Positions 3,446 to 61,017 of a stretch of DNA of 64,000 nucleotides are shown here, piece by piece; position 1 is the first letter of the stretch; each line of letters opens with the position of its first letter. The notes under the pieces were generated by a model. It did not search any database, was not told the DNA's origin, and worked only from the letters and a program-made list of their open reading frames with translations. Origin of the DNA: Alphaproteobacteria bacterium (lineage in GTDB: Bacteria > Pseudomonadota > Alphaproteobacteria > MPNO01); the NCBI GenBank assembly GCA_963667285.1, contig OY763326.1:4847546-4911545 (forward strand), read 5' to 3'. The position numbers and the translations under genes are program-made.

Positions 3446-4042
3446 TCATGCCGGGGCTGGCGGCGGTCTGAGCCGGTCGATTCGGCGCAGGATGTCGGCG
3501 AACAGGTCACGAGGAATGACAACCTCGGCCATCTGGAACGTGACGTAGCGCCCGTGGCGCACGACCTTCGCTCCGATCTTGATGAGCTTCTCTCGCAGGC
3601 TGGTCAGTGACCACTGTTCCACGGCATCGGGCAGCGCGAGGGTGCGCATGAAGTTGCCGAGGTTGTAGGCGAGCGCGTGAAGCTGGAGGCGAACGGCATT
3701 GTGGTCGAACCTGCGGCACGACAGGCGTGTCCACCGGATCGCGTTCTTGCCCTCCTTGATCCATTGCTCCGCCGTGCCGCGCCGATTGTAGAACGCAACC
3801 ACCCGCTCGGCGGGGCGGCCCAGGTTGGTGACAATAAACCCGACCCGCGGGTACAACTCACCCGGATGCCACTCGACCTTGGCGACGACGCGGCGGGGCT
3901 TGTCCCAGGTTCCGGCCTGATAACTGAAGCTGGCATGATACCGGCGTATGTCCTTGGGCGGCCTGCCGACGGGGCGCTTCAGGAGATGAGCGATGCTCTC
4001 TTGCAGCACCTTGTTGGCGGGCAGCCGGATGGCGTAGAGCAT
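3446..4042 (-). mobile_element. IS1380-family (IS4-like DDE) transposase, C-terminal ~200 aa fragment only
   Basis: The fragment ...VVAKVEWHPGELYPRVGFIVTNLGRP...YNRRGTAEQWIKEGKNAIRWTRLSCRRFDHNAVRLQLHALAYNLGNFMRTLALP...LREKLIKIGAKVVRHGRYVTFQMAEV matches the conserved C-terminal region of IS1380-family transposases. The N-terminal ~250 aa are absent, so this is a truncated remnant. Confidence 0.6.
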
Positions 4043-7360: not shown

Positions 7361-8533
7361 CTACGCCGGCGCGAGCACCTCGTTGCGCGACGGAATCTCG
7401 ACCACCTGCTCGGCGGGATCGCGGGCGGTGCCGGGCGGGTCCTCGCCGCGCTCCATGGCATCGATCGCCTCGCGCAGGCGGCGGCGGAACATCGCGACGC
7501 CGCGGTCCGAGCTCGCCAGGTGTTCCAGCGCGTGGCGCGCGATCGCCCGCTGGCTCACCTGCGCCTCCCAGTCGTCGGGCGCGCGCTGCCGCTCCTCGTA
7601 GCCGCGCACGACCGGCGCGTCGGGCGGCTGGAAGATCTTCTTGTCGGGATCGATGCGCTCGACGTGGAAGCCGATCGTGTTCCCGTTGTCGACCGGCACC
7701 CACCAGCCGACCATGCGCGCACGTTCGGTCTCCTCGGGGTCGGTACCGGTCACCTCGGGCGGCGGCACCGACCGCGCGGTCGGCACGAAGACGGTCGAGA
7801 TCCGCGTCAGCCGGTGGCCGTTGTCGAGATCGCTGGTGCGGATATAGGACACGTGGCGGTCCGAATTCACGTAGTCGTAGCGCGGCGGCACCGCCATCAC
7901 CTCCGAGAATTCGAAGAGCCCCGGATTCCAGCCATGCAGGATGTTGGTATGGACCGGGTCGACGGCGTTCTCCTGGAGCTGCAGCCAGTTGCACGCCGCG
8001 ACCTCGCCCCGGCTGTAGTTGCGGTAGGCGAGGTACACCGCCTCCTCGTCCTCCAGGACGTCGTAGCGCGGCAATAGCGGCTTTTTCTCCAGCGGCCCCA
8101 TATAGGCGAAGACCAGACCCATGTATTCCTCGGCCGGGTACCAGGGCTGGCGGATCTCCTCCCTGTAGCGGCTGTGCGCGGGCTCGCCCGGCTGGTCGAG
8201 GCAGCGCCCCTCGCGGTCGTAGAGCCAGCCGTGATAGCAGCAGCGGATGCCGTTCTCCTCGATCCGGCCGTATTCGAGCGAGGTGCCGCGATGCGAGCAA
8301 TGCGCGCCGAGCACGCCGACGCGGCCCGATCTGTCGCGATAGGCGACCAGCTCCTCGCCCAGGATTTTCAGGAATTTGGGAAGCTCGCCGAGCTCCGCCG
8401 ACAGGCAGACCGGTTGCCAGTAGCGCCGCATCAGCTCGCCCATCGGCGTGCCGAAGGCCACATGGGTGAGTCTCGAATCCTCGTCGGGGACGATCGCGTT
8501 TCGGCCGTAGCCGGACCCGTCTGAATCGCTCAT
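7361..8533 (-). CDS. Rieske [2Fe-2S] aromatic ring-hydroxylating oxygenase alpha subunit (phthalate-dioxygenase-like alpha-only type)
   Basis: Rieske motif CSHRGTSLEYGRIEENGIRCCYHGW (CxH...CxxH) and mononuclear-iron catalytic domain pattern. No beta subunit or reductase is adjacent. Confidence 0.85.
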   Translation of the reverse strand: MSDSDGSGYGRNAIVPDEDSRLTHVAFGTPMGELMRRYWQPVCLSAELGELPKFLKILGEELVAYRDRSGRVGVLGAHCSHRGTSLEYGRIEENGIRCCYHGWLYDREGRCLDQPGEPAHSRYREEIRQPWYPAEEYMGLVFAYMGPLEKKPLLPRYDVLEDEEAVYLAYRNYSRGEVAACNWLQLQENAVDPVHTNILHGWNPGLFEFSEVMAVPPRYDYVNSDRHVSYIRTSDLDNGHRLTRISTVFVPTARSVPPPEVTGTDPEETERARMVGWWVPVDNGNTIGFHVERIDPDKKIFQPPDAPVVRGYEERQRAPDDWEAQVSQRAIARHALEHLASSDRGVAMFRRRLREAIDAMERGEDPPGTARDPAEQVVEIPSRNEVLAPA

Positions 8534-36678: not shown

Positions 36679-36782
36679 GAAGGTCTCCGGCAAATGACAC
36701 CGCCGCGGATTTGATCGCCGGCGGTTTTCTGATACGACAAATATACGCGAATACGATAATCGGACCACAAGGGGGGAGCGCC

Positions 36783-37517
36783 ATGACGGAACGCAGGGTG
36801 GAGATTCTCGACCGCTCCGAGATGGTCGAGAAGATGACCGGGCTGCTTCACCTGAAGCCCGGCGAGACGGCGATCGTTACCGTCGACATGCATCGCGGCC
36901 ATCTCGACCCGGAGGTCGCGACCATGCCGGCGAAGGCGGAAGACAGCGCCCGGGTGATCGCCAACGCGAAGCAGGTCCTCGACCTCGCGCGCGGGCACGG
37001 CGTCCCGGTGATCCACGTCATCCTGGTCTATCGCAGGATTCCGGGTGTGGGCAGCGAGGGCATGACGGCGCCGTTCTGGGCCGCGATGTCGGAGATCACC
37101 GACGAGGAGAACCGCCTCACGCTCGGCCGCAAGTCGACCGTGAACGACCACAACATCGAGGGCAGCCCCGGCACCCAGATCATCCCGGCGCTCTACGCCG
37201 CGACCGACTACGTGATCGACAACAAGAAGCGCCTCGACTGCTTCATGGGCACCGACCTCGACATGCTGCTGGAGAACCTCGGGGCGCGGAATGTCTGCCT
37301 GATGGGCATCAACACCAACACCTGCGTGCTGAACACGGCGTTTACCGCGCACAACAGGAACTACGCCACGGTCGTGCTCTCGGACTGCGTCGCCAGCATG
37401 TATGGCGACGACCTCCACGAGTTCGGTCTCCAGAACGTCATGCGATGCCTGGGCTGGGTGCTCGACAACGAGCAGTTCGCGGCCAAGCTCGAAGCAGGCC
37501 GCCGGCTCAACGCTTAG
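36783..37517 (+). CDS. isochorismatase/cysteine-hydrolase family protein
   Basis: Family pattern with GETAIVTVDMHRGHLDP and catalytic-Cys region LMGINTNTCVLNTAF. ATG 36783. Its stop TAG 37514-16 lies inside the IS4 target duplication. Confidence 0.85.
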   Translation: MTERRVEILDRSEMVEKMTGLLHLKPGETAIVTVDMHRGHLDPEVATMPAKAEDSARVIANAKQVLDLARGHGVPVIHVILVYRRIPGVGSEGMTAPFWAAMSEITDEENRLTLGRKSTVNDHNIEGSPGTQIIPALYAATDYVIDNKKRLDCFMGTDLDMLLENLGARNVCLMGINTNTCVLNTAFTAHNRNYATVVLSDCVASMYGDDLHEFGLQNVMRCLGWVLDNEQFAAKLEAGRRLNA

Positions 37518-37518
37518 C

Positions 37519-38983
37519 CGCAATACTGTTCACTTTATGACTTTGATGCTGTTGACTGGATTGACGGCAGGGAGTGGAGGGGTGTCTGGCCGGCGCAGTG
37601 GGAACTTGCTCATTTTGCGTTTGACGGCGCGCGGGTTTTGCCGGTTTCGGCTGGAGACGACACGTTCCTGAAGGATTTCGTCGAGGACGGCGTCATGGAA
37701 GGCCTTGCTCTTCCGAGGGGGGAATGGCTACGGCGGCGGGCAGCTTTCGACGCACCACCCGCACAGCGTGAAGGAAGGAGAGGCGGTCCGGGTCTTCGTC
37801 GGCTTTCAGCGCGGCCTCATGGATCAGGCTTCGGATGGCGAAGTGCGCCATCATGAGGCCATAGAACTCCTGGCGGACGAGGTCCGGCGTCTTGCTGCGC
37901 AGGACGATCCTGGCGCCCCGCAGATGGGTCTTGAGTTCGTCGAGCGCGGTCTCGATTTCCCAGCGCTCATGATAGAGGGCCGCCAGCTCATGCGCCGGCG
38001 CCACGTCGTGGTCGAGGATCGTGGTGAGGAGACGATAGAACGGTACGGCGCCGCCGACACCCTCCAGCCGGTAGTCGATCGCCCGCACCGTGAGCCCGCC
38101 GGTCCGGTGGCGGCGATCCCGTTGCGAGGGATAGATGGTGCTCAGGTAAGAGCCGTCAGGCAATCGCCGCTCGGGAACCAGGCGCATGTTCTTCTTGACG
38201 CGCCAGAGCAGGTCGGCCCCGCTGCCGCGCGCCAGGGACCACAGCGCGAAGCCGAAGAACTGGCGGTCCGCCAAGCACAGCATGCCGGCCTCCAGCCGGC
38301 CAAGCACAGCTTTGGCGAGCGTGATCTCGCTCGTCCCATAGCCCGCCATCTCGCTGGCAAACAGCACATGCGTGCCGTTCTCCACCAGCGAGACAAAGCG
38401 CAGCTGCGGGAAGGCGCTGCGGCCCCGGCTGGCGCCGGGCCGGCCGAACGCCGCGGCGTTCGACGCCTCGTCGGCAACGTCCAGCGTGCTGCCGTCCAGG
38501 CTCACCAGACGCCATCGCCCATACCACGCCCCCCTGGTCAGCCGATCCGCAATCGGCTTCACCACCGCGCCATGCAGGCGGTGCAGCGGCTCCCAGCCAA
38601 GACGCGTGCGCGCCTGCGAGATCCCCGACTTGCCGGCCACCTCAAGCGCCTGCGACGGACCGGCCAGCCACTGAACCCCCTCCAGCAGGCAGCGCAGAAC
38701 CTCGCGGTAGGACGACTGCATGTAGAGCCCAAGCGCGATTACGTAATACACCACCACAGGCGCCGGAAGCGCACGCCGGCGCCGGCTCGACCGCCCGGTA
38801 TCCCGTAGGACAGACTGCACCGTATCCAGCGGAAACGTCTTCGCGATCACACCCAGACTGATGTAGTCGGTGACGCGAGAACCCGCCGGGAGCGTCCCAA
38901 CAGCGCGTGACATCGGCCTGACCCCTGCTGCGTCACAGGCCTACGACTGTAGCACCGATCAATCACTAAGTGAACAGTATTGC
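37519..38983 (-). mobile_element. intact IS4-family insertion sequence (1465 bp) with perfect 16-bp terminal inverted repeats and 8-bp target duplication
   Basis: IR GCAATACTGTTCACTT at 37519-37534 and its exact reverse complement at 38968-38983. Direct repeat GCTTAGCC at 37511-18 and 38984-91. Single transposase ORF inside. Confidence 0.8.
37693..38913 (-). CDS. IS4-family DDE transposase
   Basis: 406 aa with DDE blocks (RLVSLDGSTLDV..., CLADRQFF..., YHERWEIETALDELK), a pattern seen in IS4-family transposases. Confidence 0.85.
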   Translation of the reverse strand: MSRAVGTLPAGSRVTDYISLGVIAKTFPLDTVQSVLRDTGRSSRRRRALPAPVVVYYVIALGLYMQSSYREVLRCLLEGVQWLAGPSQALEVAGKSGISQARTRLGWEPLHRLHGAVVKPIADRLTRGAWYGRWRLVSLDGSTLDVADEASNAAAFGRPGASRGRSAFPQLRFVSLVENGTHVLFASEMAGYGTSEITLAKAVLGRLEAGMLCLADRQFFGFALWSLARGSGADLLWRVKKNMRLVPERRLPDGSYLSTIYPSQRDRRHRTGGLTVRAIDYRLEGVGGAVPFYRLLTTILDHDVAPAHELAALYHERWEIETALDELKTHLRGARIVLRSKTPDLVRQEFYGLMMAHFAIRSLIHEAALKADEDPDRLSFLHAVRVVRRKLPAAVAIPPSEEQGLP

Positions 38984-38989
38984 GCTTAG

Positions 38990-39277
38990 CCCGCATTTCC
39001 CGCCAGGGTCATGGTCTGCGCGGCGCTGTCCGGCCGACAGGGCAGGAGAGGCGCGCGGCGCGATGCGGGGACATCGGGCAAGCGCCTCGACGCACCCTGT
39101 CGGCCGGACAGCGCCGCCCCTTCGACACGCTCAGGGCAGGCTCGAAGGGTCGCGCGCAGGCGCCCGCCCGCTGCGTCGCGGGCCTCGACCGTAGTGCCTG
39201 CTACGCTCTTCGGCCCGCTCCTGGCGGATCGAACGCCTGCGCGCGACGCAGACCGTGACCCTGGTGAGAAATGCGGG
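38990..39277 (+). repeat. MITE-like palindromic repeat element, copy A (288 bp)
   Basis: Terminal inverted repeats CCCGCATTTC(C/T)C(G/A)CCAGGGTCA(T/C)GGTCTGCG ... CGCAGACCGTGACCCTGGTGAGAAATGCGGG. Flanked by TTAG (left) and CTAG (right). Two more copies lie at 44019-44281 and 53542-53805. Copy A carries a ~22-bp indel relative to copies B and C. Confidence 0.7.
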
Positions 39278-39925
39278 CTAGGCGTCGGCGGGGAAGTCGG
39301 GCTGTTTCGCCGGATGGGCATCGGCGAACGCATCGAGCGCCATGCAGGTCTCGAAGATCCGCATCGCCGTCGGGTAGGGCTCCATCGGACAGCCGAACAT
39401 GCGCGAGCCCACGATCTGCGGCACCAGGCAGAGATCGGCGAGGCCGGGCCGGTCGCCGTGGCAGAACCGCCCGGTGCCGGGGCCGGCCGCCAGATGCGCC
39501 TCCATCGCCTCCAGACCGGCCCCCATCCAGCGGCGGATCCAGGCCCCGAGCTGCTCGTCCGACAGGTCGAGATCCTCGGTCAGGTATTTCCGGATGCGCG
39601 GGACGATCAGCGGATGGGTGTCCGAGCTCGCGATCTGGGCGATGCCGCGCACCCGGGCGCGGCCCCCGGGGTCGGCCGGGAGCAGCGGCGGTTCGGGGCG
39701 GGTCTCGTCGAGATATTCGACGATCGCGAGCGACTGGAAGAGGGTCGTGCCGCCGTCGACCAGGGCGGGGACCACGGGTTGCGGGTTGACCGCGCGATAG
39801 GCGCCCTCGAACTGGTCGCCTTCGAGCAGGTCGACCGTCTCGATGTCGCAGTCCATGCCCTTGAGGTTGAGCGCGATGCGCACGCGAAACGACGCGAGCG
39901 AACGCCAGTAGCTGAACAGTTTCAT
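39278..39925 (-). CDS. maiA: maleylacetoacetate/maleylpyruvate isomerase (glutathione S-transferase zeta class)
   Basis: GST zeta pattern (MKLFSYWRSLASFRVRIALNLKG...NPQPVVPALVDGG...SLAIVEYLDE). Its stop codon is the CTAG flank of MITE copy A. Confidence 0.8.
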   Translation of the reverse strand: MKLFSYWRSLASFRVRIALNLKGMDCDIETVDLLEGDQFEGAYRAVNPQPVVPALVDGGTTLFQSLAIVEYLDETRPEPPLLPADPGGRARVRGIAQIASSDTHPLIVPRIRKYLTEDLDLSDEQLGAWIRRWMGAGLEAMEAHLAAGPGTGRFCHGDRPGLADLCLVPQIVGSRMFGCPMEPYPTAMRIFETCMALDAFADAHPAKQPDFPADA

Positions 39926-43940: not shown

Positions 43941-44018
43941 CCTGGCACCGCCCCCTGTCTCGACGATCGACCGTCCCATGAGCGAATTTGGGGAGCGGCG
44001 TGCGGACCCCCGGGCCAG

Positions 44019-44281
44019 CCCGCATTTCTCACCAGGGTCACGGTCTGCGTCGCGCGCAGGCGTTCGATCTGCCAGGAGCGGGCCGAAAAGCGTAGCAGGC
44101 ACTACGGTTAAGGCCCGCGACGCAGCGGGCGGGCGCCTGCGCGCGACCCTTCGGGCGGCGCTGTCAGGCCGACAGGGTGCGTCGAGGCGCTTGCCCGATG
44201 TCCCGCATCGCGCCGCGCGCCTCTCCTGCCCTGTCGGCCGCACAGCGCCGCGCAGACCATGACCCTGGCGAGAAATGCGGG
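44019..44281 (-). repeat. MITE-like palindromic repeat element, copy B (263 bp)
   Basis: Same TIRs as copy A, in reverse-complement orientation. Flanked by CCAG on both sides. Confidence 0.7.
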
Positions 44282-44312
44282 CCAGGGGGCGCACGCCGCT
44301 ATGCGAGCCGCC

Positions 44313-45407
44313 CTACTTCTTCTTGGTGCCCTTGATGCCGCGGACGATCTGGCCGGTGAACTTCTTCCCGGCCTTGGTCGCCAGCCACTGGAGCTTGCCG
44401 TAGTTCTCCGCGGAATCGAAGAACGATGCCGGGACCACGCCGACCTTCTCCGATTCACGCCGCGCGATCTCTATCGCCTCGTTGCCGCCGTAATCGGCAT
44501 TGCCGAGATTGTTGCCTTCGCTCATCGCCCCGATGGCGTCACGCCCGGTGGTCCACATGACGAACAGCTTGGCCGCGTTGGGACTTTCGGCCCCCTTGCG
44601 GACGGCATGCAGCAGGACACCGTGGGGCACGAAGTCCTTGAACATGGCGATCGACAGCTTGGCGCCCTTCTGCGTGGCATCGAGGAACTGTTCGGTCGAC
44701 TGGAAGCCGCCCAGGGCGAACTCCCCGAGCGCCACCCGCTGGGCCATCGCCGTCGGGTGCAGCCGCTTGACCTTGGCCGCGCCCCACGCCTTGGCGTAAC
44801 CCACCAGCGTTGCGGCGTCGTATTTCAGGATCGCGGCCGTGATGTTGCTGGCGAACAGCGTGATCGCGGCCTTTCCGGCGCCGCCCAGATCCTTCATCGC
44901 GAGCGGCAGCCTGGCGCTGTCGAACTTGCCGGGGTTGTAGGAGAACCCCCAGTAAAGGTCGCAGCACTTGAAACCGATGCCGGCGATCGGCCCCGGGCTT
45001 GCCTTGGCCGGGTTCGTACCCTCGGGCAGCATGTCCTGCCAGCCCTCGATCCTGACCAGCGCGTCGGCCGCGGCGAGCGTCATGAAGGCGCTCTCGTTCA
45101 GCACCATCACGTCATAGGACGGCTTGCCGCCGGTCTTGTACTCGATCGCGCCCTTGGCGGCCTTGCCGGAATAGCGCCCGGTCAGGTCGGGCTTCACGTC
45201 GATCGACAGGCCGTAGGCCTTGTTGAACGCAGCCGCGACCTTCTTCGCGGTGTCGGGCGCGATCGTCGGGTGCAGCGTCACGCGGAGCGACGACTCCTTC
45301 TTCGCGCCCGCGACCAGCTCCGAAAGCATGTCGGCGCCGGCCGGCATGGCGATGAGCGCAGCGGCTCCCGCGATGAGCAGCGCGGTTGTGGCGTGGCGAA
45401 ATGTCAT
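44313..45407 (-). CDS. Fe3+/thiamine-type ABC transporter substrate-binding protein (FbpA/AfuA-like)
   Basis: Signal peptide MTFRHATTALLIAGAAALIAMPAGA, GGGAGG RBS, SBP_bac_1/6-like body. Confidence 0.8.
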   Translation of the reverse strand: MTFRHATTALLIAGAAALIAMPAGADMLSELVAGAKKESSLRVTLHPTIAPDTAKKVAAAFNKAYGLSIDVKPDLTGRYSGKAAKGAIEYKTGGKPSYDVMVLNESAFMTLAAADALVRIEGWQDMLPEGTNPAKASPGPIAGIGFKCCDLYWGFSYNPGKFDSARLPLAMKDLGGAGKAAITLFASNITAAILKYDAATLVGYAKAWGAAKVKRLHPTAMAQRVALGEFALGGFQSTEQFLDATQKGAKLSIAMFKDFVPHGVLLHAVRKGAESPNAAKLFVMWTTGRDAIGAMSEGNNLGNADYGGNEAIEIARRESEKVGVVPASFFDSAENYGKLQWLATKAGKKFTGQIVRGIKGTKKK

Positions 45408-45459
45408 TGTTTCCTCCCTGGATCGGTTGCCGGGCCGGGCCGGGCCGGCCAACCCGTTC

Positions 45460-46305
45460 TCAAATGTCCTCCCCAAGCTCGCTCAGAAACCCATGGATGG
45501 TCGAGTTCACCAAGTCCGGATGCTCCCAGAACACGCCGTGGCGGGCATTCGGCACCATGAAGAACTTCGAGCCCTTTATCTTGCCGTGAAGGTGGCGGGT
45601 CTGCTTGACGAAGTCGCCCGTGCCCTCGGCGAAACGGTCCTCGTCGCCGACGACGATCAGGGTCGGCGCGACGATCCGGTCGAGCTTGTCGGTCACGTTG
45701 TGGTTCTGGCGCGCGATGATATGGCGCAGATAGGGCTTCAGGGGCGGCGGCTCCATCATCGCGAGATCGAGGATCTTCTCCATGATCTCGGGGTTGTTCC
45801 TGCGGAATTCCGGCGTGTACCAGAATTCGCCGAGATGGGAGTCCTTGAGCCGTTCGGCGACCGAACCGTCGACCCTGGAGAAGGTGAGGCAGGTCTGGAG
45901 CGGGATGCCGCGCGGGAAGTCGTAGCCCGGGAACGGGCCGGACCCGGTCTCGGACAGCACCAGCCCGCGGGTCTTGTCGGGGTAGTCGATGGCAAATTGC
46001 TGCGCCACCTGCCCGCCCATCGAATGGCCCAGGATATGGGCCCGGGCGATGCCGAGCGCGTCCAGCAGGTCGCACAGATCCTCGGCGAACATCGGGATCG
46101 AGTACTCGATGTCGGGCTTGTCCGACTTTCCGGTGCCCCGGTGATCGAAGACGATGGTCTGGTAGTGCCGGCTGAAATACGGCACCTGGTAGAGGTGCCA
46201 TTTGTGCAGGTGAGAGCCGGTGCCGGCGATCAGGACCAGTGGCTCCCCCTCGCCGTGGATCTCGTAATACATGTTGAGCCCGCTGCGCAGCTCGACCATC
46301 GGCAT
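45460..46305 (-). CDS. alpha/beta hydrolase (meta-cleavage-product hydrolase-like)
   Basis: Nucleophile elbow GHSMGG and alpha/beta hydrolase fold pattern. Confidence 0.85.
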   Translation of the reverse strand: MPMVELRSGLNMYYEIHGEGEPLVLIAGTGSHLHKWHLYQVPYFSRHYQTIVFDHRGTGKSDKPDIEYSIPMFAEDLCDLLDALGIARAHILGHSMGGQVAQQFAIDYPDKTRGLVLSETGSGPFPGYDFPRGIPLQTCLTFSRVDGSVAERLKDSHLGEFWYTPEFRRNNPEIMEKILDLAMMEPPPLKPYLRHIIARQNHNVTDKLDRIVAPTLIVVGDEDRFAEGTGDFVKQTRHLHGKIKGSKFFMVPNARHGVFWEHPDLVNSTIHGFLSELGEDI

Positions 46306-50678: not shown

Positions 50679-50785
50679 GGTGGTCTCCGTTCGGTGTACC
50701 GGCCAAGCCGATCTTGGCGGGATCTTCCCCCGCGCAGGCCAGAGCGTCTACTCTGCTCAAGCCGGGCCGCCGGCGGGAGAGTCTC

Positions 50786-51907
50786 GTGAAGTTCTCATAC
50801 ACCCATCACATGCCCTACACCCATGTCGAGGAGGCGGGGCAGGACTGGCCGGTCCCCAACAAGCAGTTCGACCCGGAGAAGGGCGTCGCGCTCTATCGCG
50901 AGTACATCGACAACAAGGTCTTCGCCGAGGAGGTCGGGTTCGACTGGATCGGCTGCAACGAGCATCACATGAGCCCCTACGGCTTGATGCCCAACCCCAA
51001 TCTCACCGCCGCGGCCATCATCGAGCGCACGAGGACGGCCGGCATCCTGCAATCGGGCAATATCGTGCCGCTGACCAACCCGATCCGCATCGCCGAGGAA
51101 TACGCCATGCTCGACGTGCAGTCGGGCGGGCGGCTGATCGCCGGGTTCATGCGCGGGATCCCGCACGAATACGTCGCCTACAACGTCTCGCCGGACGACT
51201 CCTACCCCCGCATGCGCGAGGCCTGCGAGCTGATCGTCAAGTGCTGGACCGAGCCCGAGCCTTTCGGCTGGGAGGGCGAGCATTACCGCTACCGCGCGGT
51301 CTCGATCTGGCCGCGCCCGGTGCAGCAGCCGCATCCCAGACTCCTGATGTCCGGTTCCAGCCCGGACTCGGTGCGTCTCGCCGTCGCCTTCCGCGCGACC
51401 ATCGGGCTGCTTCGAATCACCGACTTCGAGAGCGCGCGCGAGATGCGGGACCTGTACACCGGCCTGGCCCGGGAAGACGGATGGGAACCGCAGCCCGAAC
51501 ACTTCATGGTCGGCATGCCGTGCTCCATCGCCGACACCGCGGAAGAGGCGATGGAAACCCTCAGGAACGGCACCAGGTATTTCCTCGGGGTGCTCGGCGG
51601 CGGAATCCGGACGGCGCAGCGTCTCGTCTTGCAGAAGACACGCTATTACCGCGAGGCGGCGCATCGCGAGCGGTTCCCCGGCCTCGCCACGCGTCGCGAG
51701 ACGCCGCTCGAAGAGTTGATGGAGAAGGGGCTGGTGCTGTGCGGGACCCCGGACATGGCGGTCGCCCAGATCAAGCGGGCCAAGGCGGAGCTCGGCCACG
51801 GGCTGATGAACCTCAACATCAAGATCGGCAACACCCCGCAATCGGCGGTGCTGCGAACCATGCGGGCGCTGCGCGACCATGTCTTCCCGGCGGTACGGGA
51901 TGTCTGA
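50786..51907 (+). CDS. LLM-class flavin-dependent oxidoreductase (luciferase-like monooxygenase), paralog 1
   Basis: GTG start with GGGAGAG RBS. Bacterial-luciferase-fold pattern. About 90% identical to paralog 3 over the N-terminal half. Confidence 0.85.
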   Translation: MKFSYTHHMPYTHVEEAGQDWPVPNKQFDPEKGVALYREYIDNKVFAEEVGFDWIGCNEHHMSPYGLMPNPNLTAAAIIERTRTAGILQSGNIVPLTNPIRIAEEYAMLDVQSGGRLIAGFMRGIPHEYVAYNVSPDDSYPRMREACELIVKCWTEPEPFGWEGEHYRYRAVSIWPRPVQQPHPRLLMSGSSPDSVRLAVAFRATIGLLRITDFESAREMRDLYTGLAREDGWEPQPEHFMVGMPCSIADTAEEAMETLRNGTRYFLGVLGGGIRTAQRLVLQKTRYYREAAHRERFPGLATRRETPLEELMEKGLVLCGTPDMAVAQIKRAKAELGHGLMNLNIKIGNTPQSAVLRTMRALRDHVFPAVRDV

Positions 51908-52700
51908 AGCGGACGAGGCCGCGCCCTTCGAAAGGATGACCGCCCGGCTCTCGGCGGGCGAGATACCCTACCGGGTCGCGGGCGCCGGGCCGCCGGTGCT
52001 TTACCTCCACGCAGCGGGCGGCGCGCGGACCACGCCGGGGCTGGCGCTGCTTGCCCGCAACCGGCGCATCCACATGCCGATCATCCCGGGATTCGACGAT
52101 ACGCCCATCCTCCCATCCGTCTCCACGATGCGGGATATCGCGAGTCTCGGCGCGGAGTTCATCGAGACCGTCATCGGCGAGCCTGCGGATGTCATCGGGC
52201 AATCCTTCGGAGGCTGGGCCGCGCCATGGCTCGCGCTGGAGCATGCCGGTGCGGTCGGGTTGCTGGTACTCGAATGCCCGGCGGGTTTCCGGCCCAGGGG
52301 GCACCCGCCGCCGTCGCGGGACCCGGAGCTGAGATTGCGGCAGATGTTCGCCCATCCGGAGCGACGGCCGCCGGAGACCAGGTCGAACGAGACCCTGGCG
52401 CGGAACCGCGAGATGCTGCACCGCTATCACGGGGCGGAAACTCGCGACGACGCCTTGATCGACCGGCTCGGCGAGATCGAAGCGCTGACGCTGGTCCTGC
52501 TCGGCACCAAAGACGGGCGCATGCCGCGGGAATGCGTCCAATTGCTGAAAGACCGCCTGCCGCGCGCGTTCCTGATCTATGTCTACGATGCGGCGCACAG
52601 CATCGAAACCGATCAGCCCGAGCGGTTCGCCAACCTGGTCGGGGACTTCCTGCACCGGGGCGAGACGTTTCTCGTCAACCAGACGGCCCCCTGGCCGTAA
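51900..52700 (+). CDS. alpha/beta hydrolase, paralog a
   Basis: Its ATG overlaps the LLM stop. GQSFGGW nucleophile elbow. Paralogous to the convergent gene 52717-53502. Confidence 0.8.
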   Translation: MSEADEAAPFERMTARLSAGEIPYRVAGAGPPVLYLHAAGGARTTPGLALLARNRRIHMPIIPGFDDTPILPSVSTMRDIASLGAEFIETVIGEPADVIGQSFGGWAAPWLALEHAGAVGLLVLECPAGFRPRGHPPPSRDPELRLRQMFAHPERRPPETRSNETLARNREMLHRYHGAETRDDALIDRLGEIEALTLVLLGTKDGRMPRECVQLLKDRLPRAFLIYVYDAAHSIETDQPERFANLVGDFLHRGETFLVNQTAPWP

Positions 52701-52716
52701 CCGGCGGGGTTGAGTT

Positions 52717-53502
52717 TCAGGCCGCCCGGTCGTCGGTCCCCGGATTGACGAGGAACGCCTCGCCGCGGGTCAGGAAATCGCTGACCAGACCCGTGAAGTA
52801 TTCCGGCTGGTCCACTTCGATGGCGTGCGCCGCATCGTAGACATAGATCAGGAACGCACGAGGGATCAGGCGTTTCAGCAGCCGAGGACTCGAGATCGGA
52901 ATCGCGCCGTCCTTCGTGCCGTGCAGGATCAGCGTCAGCACCTCGATCTCGTTCAGCCGGTCGACCAGCGCATCGTCCTTCGCCTTGCCGCCGTGGTAAT
53001 GGGCGAGCATTTCCCGATTCCGGGTCACCATGGATTCGGGCTTGGTCTCGGGCGGCACCTTCTCGGGATGGGCGTAGAGCCGGCGCTGCAATTCCTCGGG
53101 GTCGGGGGACAGCCCGCCCACCCCCTCTTCCCGGAACCCGGCCGGGCATTCCAGTACCAGCTGGCCCACCTTTTGCGGGTGCAGGACCGTATACCAGGTC
53201 GCTCGCCAGCCGCCGAACGAATGGCCGATGACATCCGCGGTTTCGCCGATGACGGTATCGGCGAACTCCGCTTCGAGGCGGGCCAGCGCCTCCATCGACG
53301 CCACGCCGTCATGGGTCGCGGTGCCGTCGAAGCCCGGCGTCACCGGCGCATAGATCCGGAACGATTGCGCCAGGGCCTCGAGCGCCGCCGTCGCGCGAAA
53401 CCCGGATGCGGCATGCATGTGGATCACGGGCGGCCCGTCGCCGGCGACGTGATAGGCCAAGGGGCCGCTGGAAAGCGCTACGGTGTTTTCCTGAAACGAC
53501 AT
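52717..53502 (-). CDS. alpha/beta hydrolase, paralog b
   Basis: MSFQENTVALSSGPLAYHVAGDGPPVIHMHAASG... with GHSFGGW elbow. Shares long blocks with paralog a (LVLECPAGFR..., RAFLIYVYDAAH[S/A]IE[T/V]DQPE[R/Y]F). The ORF track N-terminal extension (to 53784) reads through MITE copy C and is rejected. Confidence 0.8.
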   Translation of the reverse strand: MSFQENTVALSSGPLAYHVAGDGPPVIHMHAASGFRATAALEALAQSFRIYAPVTPGFDGTATHDGVASMEALARLEAEFADTVIGETADVIGHSFGGWRATWYTVLHPQKVGQLVLECPAGFREEGVGGLSPDPEELQRRLYAHPEKVPPETKPESMVTRNREMLAHYHGGKAKDDALVDRLNEIEVLTLILHGTKDGAIPISSPRLLKRLIPRAFLIYVYDAAHAIEVDQPEYFTGLVSDFLTRGEAFLVNPGTDDRAA

Positions 53503-53541
53503 GATCTGTCCCTTGCTTCCGCGCGACCGGCCGGATCCTAG

Positions 53542-53805
53542 CCCGCATTTCTCACCACTGTCACGGCCTGCGTCGCGCCCAGGCGTTCGATCCGCCAGGA
53601 GCGGGCCGAAAAGCGTAGCGGGGACTACGGTTAAGGCCCGCGACGCAGCGGGCGGACGCCTGGGCGCGACCCTTCGGGCGGCGCTGTCCGGCCGACAGGG
53701 TGCGTCGAGGCGCTTGCCCGATGTCCCCGCATCGCGCCGCGCGCCTCTCCTGCCCTGTCGGCCGGACAGCGCCGCGCAGGCCATGACAGTGGTGAGAAAT
53801 GCGGG
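53542..53805 (-). repeat. MITE-like palindromic repeat element, copy C (264 bp)
   Basis: Same TIRs, flanked by CTAG on both sides. The right CTAG contains the TAG stop (minus strand) of LLM paralog 2. It lies in the promoter region of hydrolase paralog b. Confidence 0.7.
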
Positions 53806-54930
53806 CTAGAGGTCGCGCACGGCCGGCGCGACATGCTCGCCCCACAGCGTCATGCTGCGGCGCACCGCGGCGTCGGAGATGTTGCCGATCTTCATGTTGA
53901 TGTTCATGACGCCGTGGCCGAGCTCGGCGTGCAGATGCCTGACCTGCTCGATCACCCGGTCGGGCGTGCCGCACAGCACCAGGCCCTTGTCGATGCGCTC
54001 CTCGATCGTGGTCTGGCGCAATGCCGCGAGCCTGGCGCCGAGGGTCTTGCGGTTGGCCTCGTCCTCGTAGAACCGCGTCTTCTGTATCACCAGCCGCTGC
54101 GCCGTCCGCGGGCCGCCGAACAGCACGTGGTAGAAGTAGTCGAGACCGCCGCCGAGATGGCGCCGTGCCGCCTCGTCGTCCTCCGCGACGCAGGTATGCG
54201 CGCCGACGAGAATGTCGTCGACCGCGGGTTCCCAGCCGTGCTCGCGGGCGGTTTCCCTGTAGATCCGGATGCAGTTCTTCGCAGCCTCGAGATCGGTCAG
54301 CATCACCATCCCCATCTTCGCGCGGTGGCGCGCGGCGAAGCGGGCCGATTCGGGGCTGCTCGCCGACATGAGGATCGGCGGATGGGGTTGCTGGATCGGA
54401 CGGGGCCAGATCGACACCGCGCGGTACTTGTAGTGCTTTCCCTCCCAGCCGAACGGCTCGGGCTCGGTCCAGGCCTTGAGGATCAGCTCGGACGCTTCCT
54501 CCAGCCGCTCCCAGGACTCGCTGGGCGCGATGTTGTAGGCGACGTATTCATGCGGGATCCCGCGCATGAAGCCCGCAATCAGCCGGCCGCCCGACATGAC
54601 ATCCAGCATGGCGTACTCCTCGGCGACCCGGATCGGATTGAGAAGCGGCACCAGATTGCCGAACATGGCGATGCGCGCGCGCCTGGTGCGCTGGATCAGC
54701 ACCGTCCCGATGAGGTTGCAATTGGACATCAAGCCGTATGGGCTGAAATGGTGCTCGTTGCAGCCGATCCAGTCGAAACCGCACTCCTCGGCGTACACCA
54801 TGGTGTCGATGTAGGTCTCGTAGAGCGCCGTCGCGCGGTCGGGCACGAACCTCTTGTTGGCGACCGGCCAGTCCTGGTCGGTCTCCTCGATGTCGGTCCA
54901 CGGCATCAGGTGGAAGTAGTTGAATTTCAT
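53806..54930 (-). CDS. LLM-class flavin-dependent oxidoreductase, paralog 2
   Basis: MKFNYFHLMPWTDIEETDQDWPVANKRF... luciferase-like pattern. More divergent than paralogs 1 and 3. Confidence 0.85.
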   Translation of the reverse strand: MKFNYFHLMPWTDIEETDQDWPVANKRFVPDRATALYETYIDTMVYAEECGFDWIGCNEHHFSPYGLMSNCNLIGTVLIQRTRRARIAMFGNLVPLLNPIRVAEEYAMLDVMSGGRLIAGFMRGIPHEYVAYNIAPSESWERLEEASELILKAWTEPEPFGWEGKHYKYRAVSIWPRPIQQPHPPILMSASSPESARFAARHRAKMGMVMLTDLEAAKNCIRIYRETAREHGWEPAVDDILVGAHTCVAEDDEAARRHLGGGLDYFYHVLFGGPRTAQRLVIQKTRFYEDEANRKTLGARLAALRQTTIEERIDKGLVLCGTPDRVIEQVRHLHAELGHGVMNINMKIGNISDAAVRRSMTLWGEHVAPAVRDL

Positions 54931-54972
54931 GCAGAAGCACCCTGGAGATCGCGGTCGGCGCGGAGCATTCGC

Positions 54973-56097
54973 CTACAGATTCCGGACCGCGGGAAAGACG
55001 GTTTCCTTGAGGTGGCGCATGGTCGTCGTCACCGCGGCGTCGGGCGTGTTGCCGATCTTGATATTGAGGTTCATGCGCCCATGGCCAAGCTCGGCCTTCA
55101 CGCGCCGCAGCTGGTCGATCACCATGTCGGGAGTGCCGCAGAGCAGCAACCCCTTCTCGATCCGCTCCTCGATGGGCACCTGTTTGACCTTGCTCGGTAG
55201 TCCGGGGAAATTCTGCCGCGACTCCTCGTGCTCGAAATAGCGGGTCTTCTGGATCACCAGTCGCTGGGCCGTCCGGATGCCGCCGCCGAGCACCTCGAAG
55301 AAATACTTCTGGCCGGCCTTCATGGTCTCGACCGCCTCGTCCTTCGTGCCGGCGATGCAGCATCCCATGCCGACCATGAAATGGTCGGGTCCGGGCTCCC
55401 AGCCATCGGACCTCGCGACTTCGCGGTAGACGTCCATCATCGCCCGCGCCTCGTCGAAGCTGGTCAGGCGCAGGACACCCATGGTCGCGCCCAGCTCGGC
55501 CGCGAGCGTGGCCGATTCCCGGCTCGTGCCCGACATCACCAGGGGTGGGTGGGGCTGCTGCACCGGGCGCGGCCAGATGGACACCGCGCGGAACCGATAA
55601 TGCTCGCCCTCCCAGCCGAAGGGTTCCGGCTCGGTCCAGCATTTGAGGATCAGCTCGCACGCCTCGCGCATGCGCGAATACGATTCGTCGGGAGCCACGT
55701 TGTAGGCGACGTATTCGTGCGGGATCCCGCGCATGAACCCGGCGACCAGCCGTCCGCCCGACTGGACGTCGAGCATGGCGTATTCCTCGGCGATGCGGAT
55801 GGGATTGGCCAGCGGCACGATGTTGCCCGACTGGAGGATGCCGGCCGTCCTCGTGCGCTCGATGACGGCGGCCGCGATCAGGTTGGGGTTGGGCATGAGC
55901 CCGTAGGGGCTCATGTGGTGCTCGTTGCATCCGATCCAGTCGAACCCGACCTCCTCCGCATACACCTTGTTGTCGATGTACTTGCGGTAGAGCTCGGCCC
56001 CGCGCTTCGGGTCGAACTGCTTGTTGGCGACCGGCCAGTCCTGCCCTGCCTCCTCCACATGGGTGTAGGGCATGTGGTGGGTGTAGGAGAACTTCAC
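54973..56097 (-). CDS. LLM-class flavin-dependent oxidoreductase, paralog 3
   Basis: MKFSYTHHMPYTHVEEAGQDWPVANKQFDP... nearly identical to paralog 1 through about residue 190, then diverges. Confidence 0.85.
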   Translation of the reverse strand: MKFSYTHHMPYTHVEEAGQDWPVANKQFDPKRGAELYRKYIDNKVYAEEVGFDWIGCNEHHMSPYGLMPNPNLIAAAVIERTRTAGILQSGNIVPLANPIRIAEEYAMLDVQSGGRLVAGFMRGIPHEYVAYNVAPDESYSRMREACELILKCWTEPEPFGWEGEHYRFRAVSIWPRPVQQPHPPLVMSGTSRESATLAAELGATMGVLRLTSFDEARAMMDVYREVARSDGWEPGPDHFMVGMGCCIAGTKDEAVETMKAGQKYFFEVLGGGIRTAQRLVIQKTRYFEHEESRQNFPGLPSKVKQVPIEERIEKGLLLCGTPDMVIDQLRRVKAELGHGRMNLNIKIGNTPDAAVTTTMRHLKETVFPAVRNL

Positions 56098-56158
56098 GAG
56101 TCCTCGCCGGTCGGTGGCGACGGGCGGTGCGGCGCGGGCGCGCCGCCCGCTGGCCTCG

Positions 56159-57295: not shown

Positions 57296-59056
57296 TCACT
57301 CGGCGGGGCTGGGAATGGCGGTCCGGGCGCGCATCCGGCGGCCGCGCCTTCTGCGTCGTCTCGAGTAATCCACGCCGAACTCGCTCATCCCCGTCATCCT
57401 GTGCGCGAACACCGCGAGCACGGCGAGCAGGACGATCATGTAGATCGCGATCGCCCCGGCGGCGTTCTGGTCCCCGTTGGTCTGAAGGTCGAAGATCAGG
57501 GTCGAGATGGTGTGCGTCTTGCCCGCGCTCATGATCAGCGGCAGGGTCAGGTCGCGCGCCGCCAGCATGCCGGACATCAGGGCTGCGTAGAACAGCGCCG
57601 GCGCCATGATGGGCAGGAAGACCCGGCGGAAGGCGACCAGCTGGGAAACGCCGGAAGCGCGGGCGGCCTCGTCGAGCTCGAACCGAATCTGCAGCGAAGA
57701 GGCGTTCATGGTGCGGGTGCAGTAGGCAAGCATCCGCGTGCCCATGGCGATGGCGATCAGCCAGATCGTCCCGTAGAGCGGAATCCAGTGATAGATCGAG
57801 ATGCCGAGGAACTGGAACGCGACACCCGCGACCATGGTGGGAACGGCGGGAGCCAGGAACACCAGCGCGTCGGACCACCGGGCGGCGGGGCTGCGGCTTC
57901 GGGTGACGACCCAGGAAATGCTGGTCGCCAGCACTATCGAAACCACGATGGCGCCGGCCATGATGATCAGCGTGTTGCGCAGCGGGCCCATCATGTAGTC
58001 GATGGCGTCGACAAAGCTGACGAGCGTCATCGTCGACATGGCGGCGATCGAGAACGCCTGGAGATAGGGCACCAGCGCCACCCACACCAGGGTGATCACC
58101 GGGACGACCACGGCGAGCAGCACCCAGAACCCGACATAGGCGCCGGCGACCCAGCGCCATTTTCCGAGCGGCTGCGGCGAGAACCTGCGTCCCTTGCCGC
58201 CCACCACGGCGTATCTGTCGGCCTGTCGCAGCATGCGGACATAGAACGCGATGGCGATGCCGCAGAGCAGAAACAGCATCATGCCGATCGCCCCGGCGAG
58301 CCCGAAATTGGGTAGCCCGATCATCGGATGCATGGCGTCGTAGATCCAGATGACCAGCACGTCCACGCCGCCGGGCAAGCCGATCAGCCCGACGATGTCG
58401 AAGATCTCGATCGAGATGACGAAGAAGAACAGCGCCGCCGCCACAACGCCGGGTGCGAGCAGCGGCAGGACGATGCGGCGGATCGTCCGTGCACGGGAGA
58501 CGCCGGAGACCCAGGCCGCCTCCTCCAGCGACGCATCCATGTTGCGGAACGCCGGCAACATCATGAAGACGCAGGCGGGCGTGAGCACCACGCCCTGGAG
58601 AAAACACACCCATGAGAGCTGGTAGATATCGAACGCCGCCGCCCCGTCGACACCGGTGGCGCCCAGCATCTTGTTCACCAGACCGGAGGTCGGATTGAAC
58701 AGCCAGACATAGGACATCGCCGTTATGAAGCCGGGAATGGCGAGCTTGGCGGTCAGCAGGGTGAACAGGGCGCCCTTCCACGGGAAGTCGGTCCGCGTGA
58801 TCAGCCAGGCGAACGGGAAGGAGAACGCCATCATGAAGACAATGCTGCCCAATCCGAGGACGATGGTGCGGACGAGCACGGGCAGGAGCTCGTCGTCGGC
58901 CAGCATGTCGGCATAGTTCGCCAGCGTGAACGTCCCGATATCGCCTTCGATGGAGAAGCTGCCGACGACGTTGCCGAGCAGGGAAACCACGATGAAGGCG
59001 AGGCCGAGAAAGGCCAGCCCGAACACCCAGGCGATGCCGGTCGGTCTAACCCGCAT
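57296..59056 (-). CDS. Fe3+-type ABC transporter permease, fused two-domain
   Basis: 586 aa with two permease repeats, homologous to the gene at 42195-43940. Confidence 0.85.
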   Translation of the reverse strand: MRVRPTGIAWVFGLAFLGLAFIVVSLLGNVVGSFSIEGDIGTFTLANYADMLADDELLPVLVRTIVLGLGSIVFMMAFSFPFAWLITRTDFPWKGALFTLLTAKLAIPGFITAMSYVWLFNPTSGLVNKMLGATGVDGAAAFDIYQLSWVCFLQGVVLTPACVFMMLPAFRNMDASLEEAAWVSGVSRARTIRRIVLPLLAPGVVAAALFFFVISIEIFDIVGLIGLPGGVDVLVIWIYDAMHPMIGLPNFGLAGAIGMMLFLLCGIAIAFYVRMLRQADRYAVVGGKGRRFSPQPLGKWRWVAGAYVGFWVLLAVVVPVITLVWVALVPYLQAFSIAAMSTMTLVSFVDAIDYMMGPLRNTLIIMAGAIVVSIVLATSISWVVTRSRSPAARWSDALVFLAPAVPTMVAGVAFQFLGISIYHWIPLYGTIWLIAIAMGTRMLAYCTRTMNASSLQIRFELDEAARASGVSQLVAFRRVFLPIMAPALFYAALMSGMLAARDLTLPLIMSAGKTHTISTLIFDLQTNGDQNAAGAIAIYMIVLLAVLAVFAHRMTGMSEFGVDYSRRRRRRGRRMRARTAIPSPAE

Positions 59057-60203
59057 TCCCGGCCCCGGTCAGGGATTCCCCGGCGTCGTATGCCTCGCCG
59101 CCGCCGGCCGCCGGCGCCACGACCGAGCAATGTTCGGGCGGCATGTGGAGGAAGATCTTCCGGCCTTCGCCGAGTTCGACGCTGTGGTGCAGCTTGACGC
59201 GGAGCTTCACGGAACCCATCGACACCGTGTAGACCATCGCCTCTCCGACGAACTGACGCGTGGTCACCTCGCATTCGATGGTGTTGCCGGCGGCCGCATC
59301 CCGATCCGCCAGCCGCATGTCCTCCGGCCGTATGCCGAAAAAGCAGCGTGCGCCCGCCGACAGTCGCTTCTCCCGCGGGGCCAGCGCGCGGACACGCCCG
59401 ATCGCGCTGTCCAACGTGGCGAATCCGTCCGTGACATCGACCAGGTCCGCGGGCACCAGGCTCATCTCCCCGATGAACCGTGCGACGAACTCGTCGGCGG
59501 GGTGACGATAGATTTCCCGCGGGGTGCCGATCTGGACCATGCGGCCGCGATCCATCACCGCGATCCGGTCGCCCGTTTCCATCGCCTCGGCCTGGTTGTG
59601 CGTGACGTAGACCGTGGTCAGGCCGAGTCGGTGCATGAGTTCCTTGAGCTGCGCCCGAAGCCGGAGCTGGAGCTTGAAGTCGAGGTTCGACAGCGGTTCG
59701 TCCATCAGCAGCACATCGGGCTGCAGCGCAAGCGCCCGGGCCAGCGCGACTCGCTGCTGCTGGCCGCCCGACAACGTGGTCACCGGCCGGTCGGAGAGGC
59801 TGGAAAGCGCGAGCAGGTCGAGAACGTCAAGGACTCTGGCGCGCTGTTCTTCCTTCGGCAGCCGCCGCACCCCTTCGCGCAGGGGAAAGGCCACGTTCTC
59901 GTACACATCCATATGCGGCCATACGGCATAGGACTGGAAGACCATGGCGATGGGCCGGCGCTCGGGCGGGACGTGGCGCCGTTCGGAGGCGGAGACCACG
60001 GTCTCGCCGTCGATCTCGATGGTTCCGCGGTCCGGCCTTTCGAGGCCCGCGATCGAGCGCAGCATGGTGGTCTTGCCGCAGCCGCTGGGACCGAGCAGCA
60101 CAAAGAATTCGCCCCTGGCGACCTCGAAATCCACACCGTCCAGGGCGCGCACCTCGGAGTCGCTCAGCCGGAACGTCTTCTTGAGGCCCCGGACAGTCAG
60201 CAT
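59046..60203 (-). CDS. ABC transporter ATP-binding protein with C-terminal TOBE domain (FbpC/PotA-like)
   Basis: Walker A GPSGCGKTT, signature LSGGQQQRVALARAL, Walker B LLMDEP, C-terminal TOBE pattern. Confidence 0.9.
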   Translation of the reverse strand: MLTVRGLKKTFRLSDSEVRALDGVDFEVARGEFFVLLGPSGCGKTTMLRSIAGLERPDRGTIEIDGETVVSASERRHVPPERRPIAMVFQSYAVWPHMDVYENVAFPLREGVRRLPKEEQRARVLDVLDLLALSSLSDRPVTTLSGGQQQRVALARALALQPDVLLMDEPLSNLDFKLQLRLRAQLKELMHRLGLTTVYVTHNQAEAMETGDRIAVMDRGRMVQIGTPREIYRHPADEFVARFIGEMSLVPADLVDVTDGFATLDSAIGRVRALAPREKRLSAGARCFFGIRPEDMRLADRDAAAGNTIECEVTTRQFVGEAMVYTVSMGSVKLRVKLHHSVELGEGRKIFLHMPPEHCSVVAPAAGGGEAYDAGESLTGAGNAG

Positions 60204-61017
60204 GCCGCAACGATCTTACCGGGCGATATCGACGGGGAGCAATTGCGGCTTGGCGGCCGCCTCTGAGCTGGCCTCGTCTTTTCGGACAACTTGGCGGCGG
60301 CTTTAGGGTGCATTCCGAATGAGGTTCAGGCCGCTAGAAACCTCCCGAATCGAACTCCCTGACGGCGCGCGCGAACGCCAGATCCGGCTCGAAGGCGTGA
60401 CCGATACCGCCGCCGCGCGATCTCCTGGCGGGCGGAGCGCGAGGGGGTGCTGCTCACCCGCGGGTCGCCGTGGCCGATTGCATGGGAGTCCTCCAGGTCA
60501 GTTCTTCTGACGCGAGCGGCTCCCGGACCATCCGCCAAGGGGATCGGAGGTGGGTTGCGTCCGCAGATCACGATCTTCGGCACGGGCGATTTTCTTGTCA
60601 GCTCATCCCGGGGCAGGGGCCCGGCGCGGTCCTCTGGAGGGGCTGAATCGGGCAGGTCAACGAGATAGGTCTCCAATGAAATCAAGCCCCCCATTTGGGG
60701 CGGTTGGGTCACATAGTCCATTGAAATTAACGGAACATTCAGCTCATGCCGGGCCCACCACCTCGCTTGGAACATCGTTTCCGACCCCACCTTCGCCGGC
60801 AAGAGCCGGTTCGCGGCTGCGACGCAGCGTGAAGCCTCCCGAGCGGTGCCGGGCCCGGATCCCTGCCCTCCCGGTCGACCGGCGCGCCGGGCCTGCGCGC
60901 TGCCTGGCGAAGGGCACGGTCTCCAGGTGCTTTTGCACGGCATGGGCGACGCTGTCGGCGAGCGGCAGATGCGCCCTTTCGGCGTTCCAGTGCTGGCGGA
61001 AGAGCTCGACGGTCTCG

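Follow-up and report, generated by a model that had tools for sequence, protein, structure and literature searches.

A short, strongly folded inverted-repeat element with IS1380-type ends at gene termini in uncultured Alphaproteobacteria

The DNA analysed here, a 64,000-nt stretch of contig OY763326.1 from an Alphaproteobacteria bacterium (the window), carries three copies of a non-coding repeat with the anatomy of a miniature inverted-repeat transposable element (MITE). Copy A (288 bp) occupies positions 38990-39277 on the plus strand, its orientation being assigned from the asymmetric interior, in which hairpin 1 precedes hairpin 2; copies B (44019-44281; 263 bp) and C (53542-53805; 264 bp) lie on the minus strand. 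A sequence-only reading had placed the copies at these coordinates and had listed their flanks as TTAG/CTAG (A), CCAG/CCAG (B), and CTAG/CTAG (C), all of which we confirmed. The terminal inverted repeats (TIRs), put at about 30 bp in that reading, measured ~31 nt, and repeat searches paired arms of 38-44 nt with 86-93% complementarity. Full MITE-type termini have the sequence CCCGCATTTCTCACCAGGGTCA. The first 14 nt of the left TIR of copy A (38990-39020), CCCGCATTTC(C/T)C(G/A)C, correspond to the terminus of a clade of IS1380-family insertion sequences (ISs) discussed below, and the right TIR (39247-39277) ends ...GTGACCCTGGTGAGAAATGCGGG. The 21-nt terminus GACCCTGGTGAGAAATGCGGG occurred six times in the window when up to three mismatches were allowed, always at one of the six ends of the three copies, compared with an expectation of 0.00 from dinucleotide shuffles. 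The copies can be aligned end to end, with pairwise identities of ~95-96% over aligned columns and a mean column identity of 90% when flanks are included. Their sole large difference is an insertion in copy A (39119-39142), which alignment and folding place at the junction as an extra small hairpin; the sequence-only reading had seen this indel and had sized it at ~22 bp rather than the 24 bp found here.

Gene context was established by open reading frame (ORF) screening based on third-codon-position G+C content (GC3) and by Pfam and NCBIfam searches. On the right of copy A, the flank CTAG (39278-39281) contains the CTA (39278-39280) that serves as the TAG stop codon of a minus-strand glutathione S-transferase (GST)-like gene (39278-39925). 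On the left, the flank TTAG (38986-38989) is one copy of the target duplication of the MITE and now also lies within the 6-bp duplication CTTAGC (37513-37518 and 38985-38990) of a neighbouring, intact IS4-family IS (37519-38984), which has 22-nt TIRs and a minus-strand transposase gene (37693-38913; 222 bits on NF033592). This IS inserted exactly between the stop codon of an isochorismatase-family gene (36711-37517, plus strand; stop now at 37515-37517) and the first base of copy A. When the IS was removed in silico, the isochorismatase TAG abutted copy A. Copy A was therefore at first bracketed exactly by the stops of two convergent genes, and each copy of its duplication held one of them. 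The isochorismatase stop that had been read immediately beside copy A belongs to this ancestral state only, as the TAG at 38987-38989 is no longer a gene stop with the IS4-family IS intervening.

Copies B and C are intercistronic, each lying between co-directional minus-strand genes. The ORF upstream of copy B (44313-45476) ends with a stop codon at 44313-44315, 31 bp from the element and close to the ~30 bp first estimated, and an ABC permease gene starts 39 bp beyond the other end (~43979). The flanks of this copy, CCAG at 44015-44018 and 44282-44285 (CTGG in element orientation), form a perfect 4-bp direct repeat. Copy C is flanked by CTAG at 53538-53541 and 53806-53809, and the CTA at 53806-53808 is the TAG stop codon of a luciferase-like monooxygenase gene (53806-54930); as with the GST-like gene, the stop had been correctly assigned to the right flank. 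At the opposite end of copy C, 39 bp separate the element from the ATG (53502) of a downstream alpha/beta-hydrolase gene on the same strand. At this end, minus-strand positions 53535-53564 contain a -35-like GTGACA in the TIR and a -10-like TAGGAT across the duplicated CTAG, a putative sigma-70-like promoter facing outward toward the hydrolase gene; the match is weak (9 of 12 positions) and is a match to the consensus only. The surroundings of copy C (50700-56100) also contain diverged paralogous genes (repeat families D2, D5, I1, and I2; 72-81% identity over 0.3-0.9 kb), among which Pfam identifies 53806-54930 as the luciferase-like monooxygenase. Elsewhere in the window, positions 59050-59074 (plus strand; 20 of 25 nt) probably represent a decayed solo end of this family, although the assignment is uncertain. 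This stretch is preceded by CTAA and sits in the last codons of a minus-strand gene (59046-60215), whose product ends ...LTGAGNAG-TAG and resembles the TIR reading frame VTLVRNAG-TAG.

The family extends well beyond the window. One scan of a species-representative genome collection with a degenerate 23-nt terminus query gave at least 107 further loci from ~40 assemblies among the matches listed, nearly all of them metagenome-assembled genomes (MAGs) and labelled mostly Alphaproteobacteria, Rhodospirillales, Defluviicoccus, and Thalassobaculaceae. The matches listed and the window together supplied 182 termini, which resolved into 62 pairs and 58 unpaired ends. All but one of the pairs (61/62) span 122-320 bp, with a mode at 263-264 bp, and the remaining pair spans 1967 bp. 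Size variants have either lost one hairpin (122-193 bp) or gained small hairpins of 23-47 bp (288-320 bp), copies differ from one another by 1-bp and non-triplet indels, and tblastn with IS1182 and IS1380 transposases gave no match inside MITE copies. Copy identity averaged 93.8% within and 89.7% between assemblies, 16 of 32 copies had their nearest neighbour within their own assembly, and the window copies were closest to those of MAG OZ242200.1 among the matches listed. No Rfam family matched the MITE at gathering thresholds in the 64-kb window, where only one tRNA was reported; whole-MITE blastn against PLSDB plasmids gave no match, nor did the MITE terminus match any viral contig, and the literature we searched contained no paper describing an IS1380-linked MITE or the present family. 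The element is novel, as it had been called, only in the sense of its absence from Rfam, PLSDB, and that literature.

The unpaired ends include solo termini at L003:~7857-7881, L034:~3822-3847, L068:~6399-6423, and L082:~4813-4837, together with ~20 others, in which 22-76 nt of one MITE arm give way to unrelated DNA. Into at least four of these, a cellular gene (ABC ATPase, methyltransferase, RecN) reads and stops at a TGA within the TIR (CCG TGA CC...). Such termini could have arisen by deletion, with an in-frame stop favoured by selection, or by events involving one end only. We rejected the idea that unpaired ends mark a larger autonomous element, as the ORFs reading into them encode ABC ATPases, RecN, and a methyltransferase and no transposases. 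A comparison of L032 with L080 as an occupied site with a large element was also discarded, the 2.4-kb difference consisting of two cellular genes. Exact-match termini at L091, L103, and L002 come from MAGs labelled Solirubrobacterales and Bryobacterales/Bryobacteraceae, outside the Alphaproteobacteria; each represents either a lone end or a degenerate element of 187 bp, and tblastn for nearby IS1380-family genes was negative.

The flanks of the 51 full-length copies revealed the target. YTAR (Y, C or T; R, A or G) was present on each side in 37 copies, and perfect 4-bp direct repeats flanked 20, a number reached in none of 10,000 shuffles (mean 9.5, maximum 18). Whenever the left flank ended in A, so did the right flank (8/8; position 4, p = 4e-5), and a right flank starting with T was accompanied by a left flank starting with T in eight of nine cases (position 1, p = 0.0013). 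Because these outer positions co-vary and perfect non-palindromic pairs exist (TTAG/TTAG, CTAA/CTAA, and the CTGG/CTGG of copy B), a duplication of 4 bp is favoured over one of TA only. Where the two flanks disagreed, the difference was nearly always a C/T or G/A transition in an outer position (TTAG/CTAG, CTAG/CTAA), which we read as decay of CTAG. Mobility is indicated by an orthologous pair in which L096 carries ...ctag-MITE-ctagcgac... and L026 has the empty site, a single ...CTAGCGAC...; at one orthologous site, L027 has a 263-bp copy and L099 a 138-bp copy. The family displays the sequence-level features by which MITEs are recognised, namely a length below ~500 bp with no transposase gene, TIRs, a target duplication, dispersed copies, and presence/absence polymorphism.

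Duplication of YTAR has a simple consequence for neighbouring genes. The left copy supplies TAG or TAA and the right copy CTA or TTA, so that both neighbours keep a stop codon. Under a strict criterion based on the GC3 pattern, a flank contained the stop codon of a gene-like ORF in 27 of 61 elements, and in two elements both flanks did. The same criterion was satisfied by 111 of 740 unoccupied YTAR sites at the same loci, or by 111 of 605 when sites inside recognised genes were left out, giving a stop-codon enrichment of ~2.4- to 3-fold. At ~67% G+C, however, stop codons are a main source of tolerated YTAR sites, and much of the enrichment is therefore probably a matter of site supply.

The origin of the ends was indicated by a search of PLSDB (E <= 10) with a 35-nt query composed of CTAG and the TIR. 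Matches of 18/18 nt, CTAGCCCGCATTTCTCAC, were found at both ends of 1654-1655-bp ISs on Pseudomonas putida pKF715A, a Stutzerimonas megaplasmid, and Bradyrhizobium sp. 62B p1. All three ISs are bounded by ctag on both sides, and the protein that they encode, annotated as an IS1380 family transposase, scored 407 bits on NCBIfam NF033539 (cutoff 180). The outer 14 nt of the MITE, CCCGCATTTCTCAC, are identical at all 14 positions to both termini of the plasmid ISs. A metagenome scan with an alignment of the plasmid IS transposases gave 80 loci, which, with the three plasmid loci, yielded 53 full-length ISs (1.63-1.73 kb) with consensus ends of CCCGnATtTCTCACa on the left and CCCGcATTTCTCACac on the right (reverse complement). 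The MITE has CCCGCATTTCTCACCA at both ends and agrees with this consensus, too, at all 14 outer positions. The flanks of these ISs were CTAG/CTAG (24), CTAA/CTAA (4), TTAG/TTAG (2), CTAA/CTAG (6), TTAG/CTAG (4), and CTAG/TTAG (3), and thus carry the same transition mismatches as those of the MITE; a Rhizobium leguminosarum copy lies between ttag and ttag. Transposases of this clade are ~57% identical to that of IS1380A, the type element from Acetobacter, the ends of which also have the TCTCAC core. A duplication of 4-5 bp is expected in the IS1380 family, a range that includes the 4-bp YTAR of both the clade ISs and the MITE as well as the 5-bp direct repeat (DR) of IS1247 (PMC3281130, Table 2). 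Judged from these terminal matches, the parent family of the MITE ends is most likely IS1380, not IS5.

The window itself contains a truncated IS1380-family transposase gene (3446-4042, minus strand), which encodes the C-terminal half of the enzyme and scored 171 bits on NF033539, below the cutoff of 180. We rejected it as a partner, for it belongs to another clade (30% identity) with a different terminus. A possible end of the same element near 3234-3251 has the sequence CCGGGATTCCCC, which differs from the MITE terminus; the truncated gene is apparently what is left of a different IS.

Folding of either strand of the MITE gave a ~31-bp outer stem closing two ~100-nt hairpins in a three-way junction. 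As RNA, the two strands had predicted energies of -203 and -202 kcal/mol (z ~ -14), and the DNA fold had an energy of -129.5 kcal/mol (z = -16); the RNA fold of copy A, in which the insertion adds a third small hairpin, reached -225.2 kcal/mol (z = -14.4). Standard pairs filled 97.7% of the pair cells across 41 copies (262-288 bp). Compensatory double changes were found in 22 pairs, such as GC 21 / AU 18 and GC 18 / CG 12, compared with 8.9 +/- 1.7 in column shuffles (0/500 reached the observed number) and 3-9 in slid controls; the outer stem of copy C alone has three compensated changes. The fate of pairing depended on how widely a variant was distributed. Variants common to at least two copies kept pairing in 245 of 288 cells, whereas private variants broke it in 40 of 62 and reached similar densities in stems and loops (0.34 and 0.44 per column). 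Because shared variants keep pairing and private ones break it, the fold is preserved in the lineages that produce copies, while single insertions decay almost neutrally. The fold is, in other words, selected in the spreading lineage and not at each locus.

Several tests bear on what the fold might do in a transcript. Elements showed no preferred orientation relative to the gene reading into them (13 forward, 16 reverse), searches of the MITE revealed no intrinsic-terminator motif, and a tally from the pair table gave approximately equal numbers of G-U and A-C intermediates, offering no sign of a strand-specific RNA function. The suggestion that the hairpin acts as a bidirectional terminator between convergent genes suits only the ancestral copy A, as copies B and C lie between co-directional genes. 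The lack of orientation bias and of a terminator motif, together with frequent truncation, favours a selfish element with a fold used for propagation over an RNA maintained by the host. One possibility is that the fold would bring the two ends of this very short element together.

These results make it very likely that the repeats are a MITE (263 bp, with variants of 122-320 bp) whose outermost 14-16 nt are the TIRs of the IS1380 clade, whose remaining sequence is an unrelated self-complementary module, and which is mobilised in trans. An IS1380-family DDE transposase supplied from elsewhere would bind both termini. The anatomy of the copies shows insertion at YTAR, preferentially CTAG, with duplication of 4 bp; as YTAR includes a TAG or TAA triplet in at least one orientation, a stop codon can serve as the target, and the duplication leaves an intact stop on each side and allows insertions exactly at gene ends to be tolerated. 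Such events account for copy A between two convergent stops and copy C on a stop inside an apparent operon. Covariation shows maintenance of the fold in the lineage that continues to transpose, where mobilisation, or the survival of source copies, may depend on it; once inserted, a copy would decay neutrally, with a hairpin of about -200 kcal/mol in 3' untranslated or intercistronic RNA as a by-product. Most of the earlier description, of a non-coding element with TIRs, a ~4-bp YTAR duplication, a tendency to lie at stop codons, and a very stable hairpin, is borne out by these data.

Some observations weigh against parts of this interpretation. The similarity between the MITE and the ISs is confined to the terminal 14-16 nt. 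The interiors cannot be aligned, and the MITE interior therefore looks like a palindromic module of its own with no obvious remnant of a deletion. A 14-nt subterminal motif, GCTTGCCCGA, lies 83 nt from the right end in the MITE and 86 nt from it in the Pseudomonas IS, but it is present in only 3 of 53 ISs and was not used as evidence. A tblastn search of the window and of the 107 listed MITE-bearing 8-kb loci detected no transposase gene of the relevant IS1380 clade, and no autonomous element with the full 31-nt MITE-type TIR was seen. Since the ends and target match and no cognate gene was found nearby, we infer mobilisation in trans by an IS1380-family enzyme. Only 20 of the 51 duplications are perfect, and for CTAG targets a 2-bp (TA) duplication with element termini G...C is possible. 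The clean empty sites number one, and none was recovered for the window copies, for which exact-protein look-ups with two flanking genes returned no record. Finally, the stop-codon enrichment was obtained with a crude GC3-based gene caller that under-detects genes, and it may largely reflect where YTAR is tolerated.

The sequence-only reading had assigned the element to the IS5 family (IS427/IS1031 group), as the source or mover of a non-autonomous derivative. YTAR/CTAG-type targets are classically associated with IS5, and the MITE flanks are YTAR. Both termini, however, are identical over 14/14 nt to IS1380-family ends in at least 56 autonomous elements, which have the same 4-bp flanks. The 18-mer matches inspected in 7.3 Gb of plasmids in PLSDB were IS1380-family ends only, and no IS5-family element with CCCGCATTTCTCAC was seen. 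Co-variation of flank positions 1 and 4 between sides indicates a 4-bp duplication, which differs from the 2-bp duplications of IS427-group ISs captured in Paracoccus (PMC3281130, Table 2). An IS5 origin is thus very improbable, the IS427/IS1031 groups, with an expected duplication of 2-3 bp, being set apart by duplication length and by the match to the termini of another family. Descent by internal deletion from an IS1182-family IS was also considered. The 1967-bp pair (L009:2863-4829) looked at first like such a parent: it is bounded by MITE termini with TTAG/CTAG flanks, it encodes a 440-aa transposase of the IS1182 family (367 bits, cutoff 270), and its first 65 and last 259 nt can be aligned with the MITE. 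Four further copies of the IS (L108-L111; transposases 98% and 93% identical) nevertheless span 1655-1659 bp, have their own TIR, GGAGCGTGCGCYGCAGAAA...TTCTACGGCGCACGCTCC, and are flanked CTAG/CTAG with no MITE sequence nearby. The L009 locus is therefore an unrelated IS1182-family IS nested at CTAG inside a MITE copy; we rejected it as a parent, and descent from this family is extremely unlikely. The five copies of that IS (L009:2915-4575, L108:1420-3077, L109:1419-3075, L110:660-2315, and L111:150-1806) are always flanked by CTAG/CTAG and encode a transposase ~53% identical to that of ISKpn6; one of them splits a short-chain dehydrogenase gene (ISSQ/LGHVG).

Two other explanations would take the element out of the MITE class or shift selection to the host. 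Repetitive extragenic palindromes (REP) and the mosaic elements built from them (BIME) are, like the present repeats, intergenic, palindromic, GC-rich, and highly repeated. REP/BIME sequences are imperfect palindromes of 20-40 nt with no target duplication, associated with RAYT (Y1) transposases. The MITE, by contrast, is 263 bp long, is flanked by a 4-bp direct duplication with an empty site, has the termini of a DDE IS family, and lacks the conserved 5' GTAG head. On size, duplication, and termini, spread by a RAYT enzyme is consequently extremely unlikely. A structured RNA or DNA that functions for the host, as a processing site, terminator, or mRNA stabiliser selected at each locus, deserves somewhat more weight but is still unlikely. 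The very strong, covarying secondary structure, the positions right after stop codons and between operon genes, and the ~90% identity of the family across ~40 assemblies among the matches listed are all features that such a function would produce. On the other hand, 40 of 62 private substitutions disrupt a pair, stems collect them almost as often as loops do, the 13:16 ratio of orientations shows no bias, there is neither an Rfam match nor a terminator motif, and copies are polymorphic for presence and truncation. Effects of MITE copies on transcripts are likely, as a by-product. Also of low probability is a structure-dependent MITE in which the fold is either required for IS1380-type mobilisation, for example as a folded or cruciform substrate that joins the two ends of an element shorter than the persistence length, or is an RNA module exploited by hosts between operon genes. 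If this were true, secondary structure and not just TIR sequence would define transposition competence.

The element is genuine, but mobile repeats of its kind are commonplace in bacteria: MITEs with long stem-loops are well known already, as are MITEs tied to DDE IS families with 4-bp duplications (PMC3852290). Current concepts are unchanged by it, and the points of remaining interest are the covariation signature and the partner transposase. The IS1380 family includes ISEcp1-type elements, which are important in the mobilisation of resistance genes, and the present family would be a clear example of a MITE tied to IS1380. The contrast between shared and private substitutions is a clean mark, open to testing, of structural selection acting on the lineage that transposes, and the target logic shows how a YTAR-duplicating transposon can land on stop codons and leave both neighbouring genes unharmed. 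There are also practical consequences: in many uncultured Alphaproteobacteria, copies lie over stop codons and at operon junctions, create long spurious ORFs in annotation, and break short-read assemblies, several of the loci ending inside a copy.

Among known systems, the closest relatives of the MITE ends are the IS1380-family ISs with termini CCCG(C/G)AT(T/A)TCTCAC from P. putida pKF715A, Stutzerimonas, Bradyrhizobium, and Rhizobium plasmids, with which the MITE has in common the outer 14 nt, YTAR (mostly CTAG) flanks, and a 4-bp duplication. It differs from them in lacking a transposase gene, in its size (263 bp as opposed to ~1.65 kb), in its inverted repeat of ~31 nt, and in a self-complementary interior with no detectable similarity. 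MITEPye1 of Paracoccus yeei is a long stem-loop MITE that has been linked to IS1182 (PMC11578231). Like MITEPye1, the Correia elements of Neisseria, and the enterobacterial ERIC/IRU repeats, the present element is small and non-coding, has TIRs and a short duplication, lies in intergenic positions or 3' of genes, and has a strong predicted hairpin; in all of these, mobilisation in trans is presumed and effects on co-transcribed mRNAs are possible. Correia and ERIC/IRU elements have been linked to other transposase families or to none. The present element departs from all three in a fold that is a three-way junction with demonstrated covariation, in a YTAR target that overlaps stop codons, and in its presumed transposase family. 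With IS1182-linked systems, such as the 160-169-bp ISMac2-derived MITEs of Methanosarcina (DR 4 bp; PMC3852290) and ISPsy36, which targets the 4-bp palindrome GGCC (PMC8027508), it shares a 4-bp duplication at a short palindromic target, and a CTAG-specific IS1182-family IS co-occurs with it and even inserts into it. The termini of the two are nevertheless unrelated, those of the IS1182-family IS beginning GGAGCGTGCGC... and those of the MITE CCCGCATTTCTCAC.

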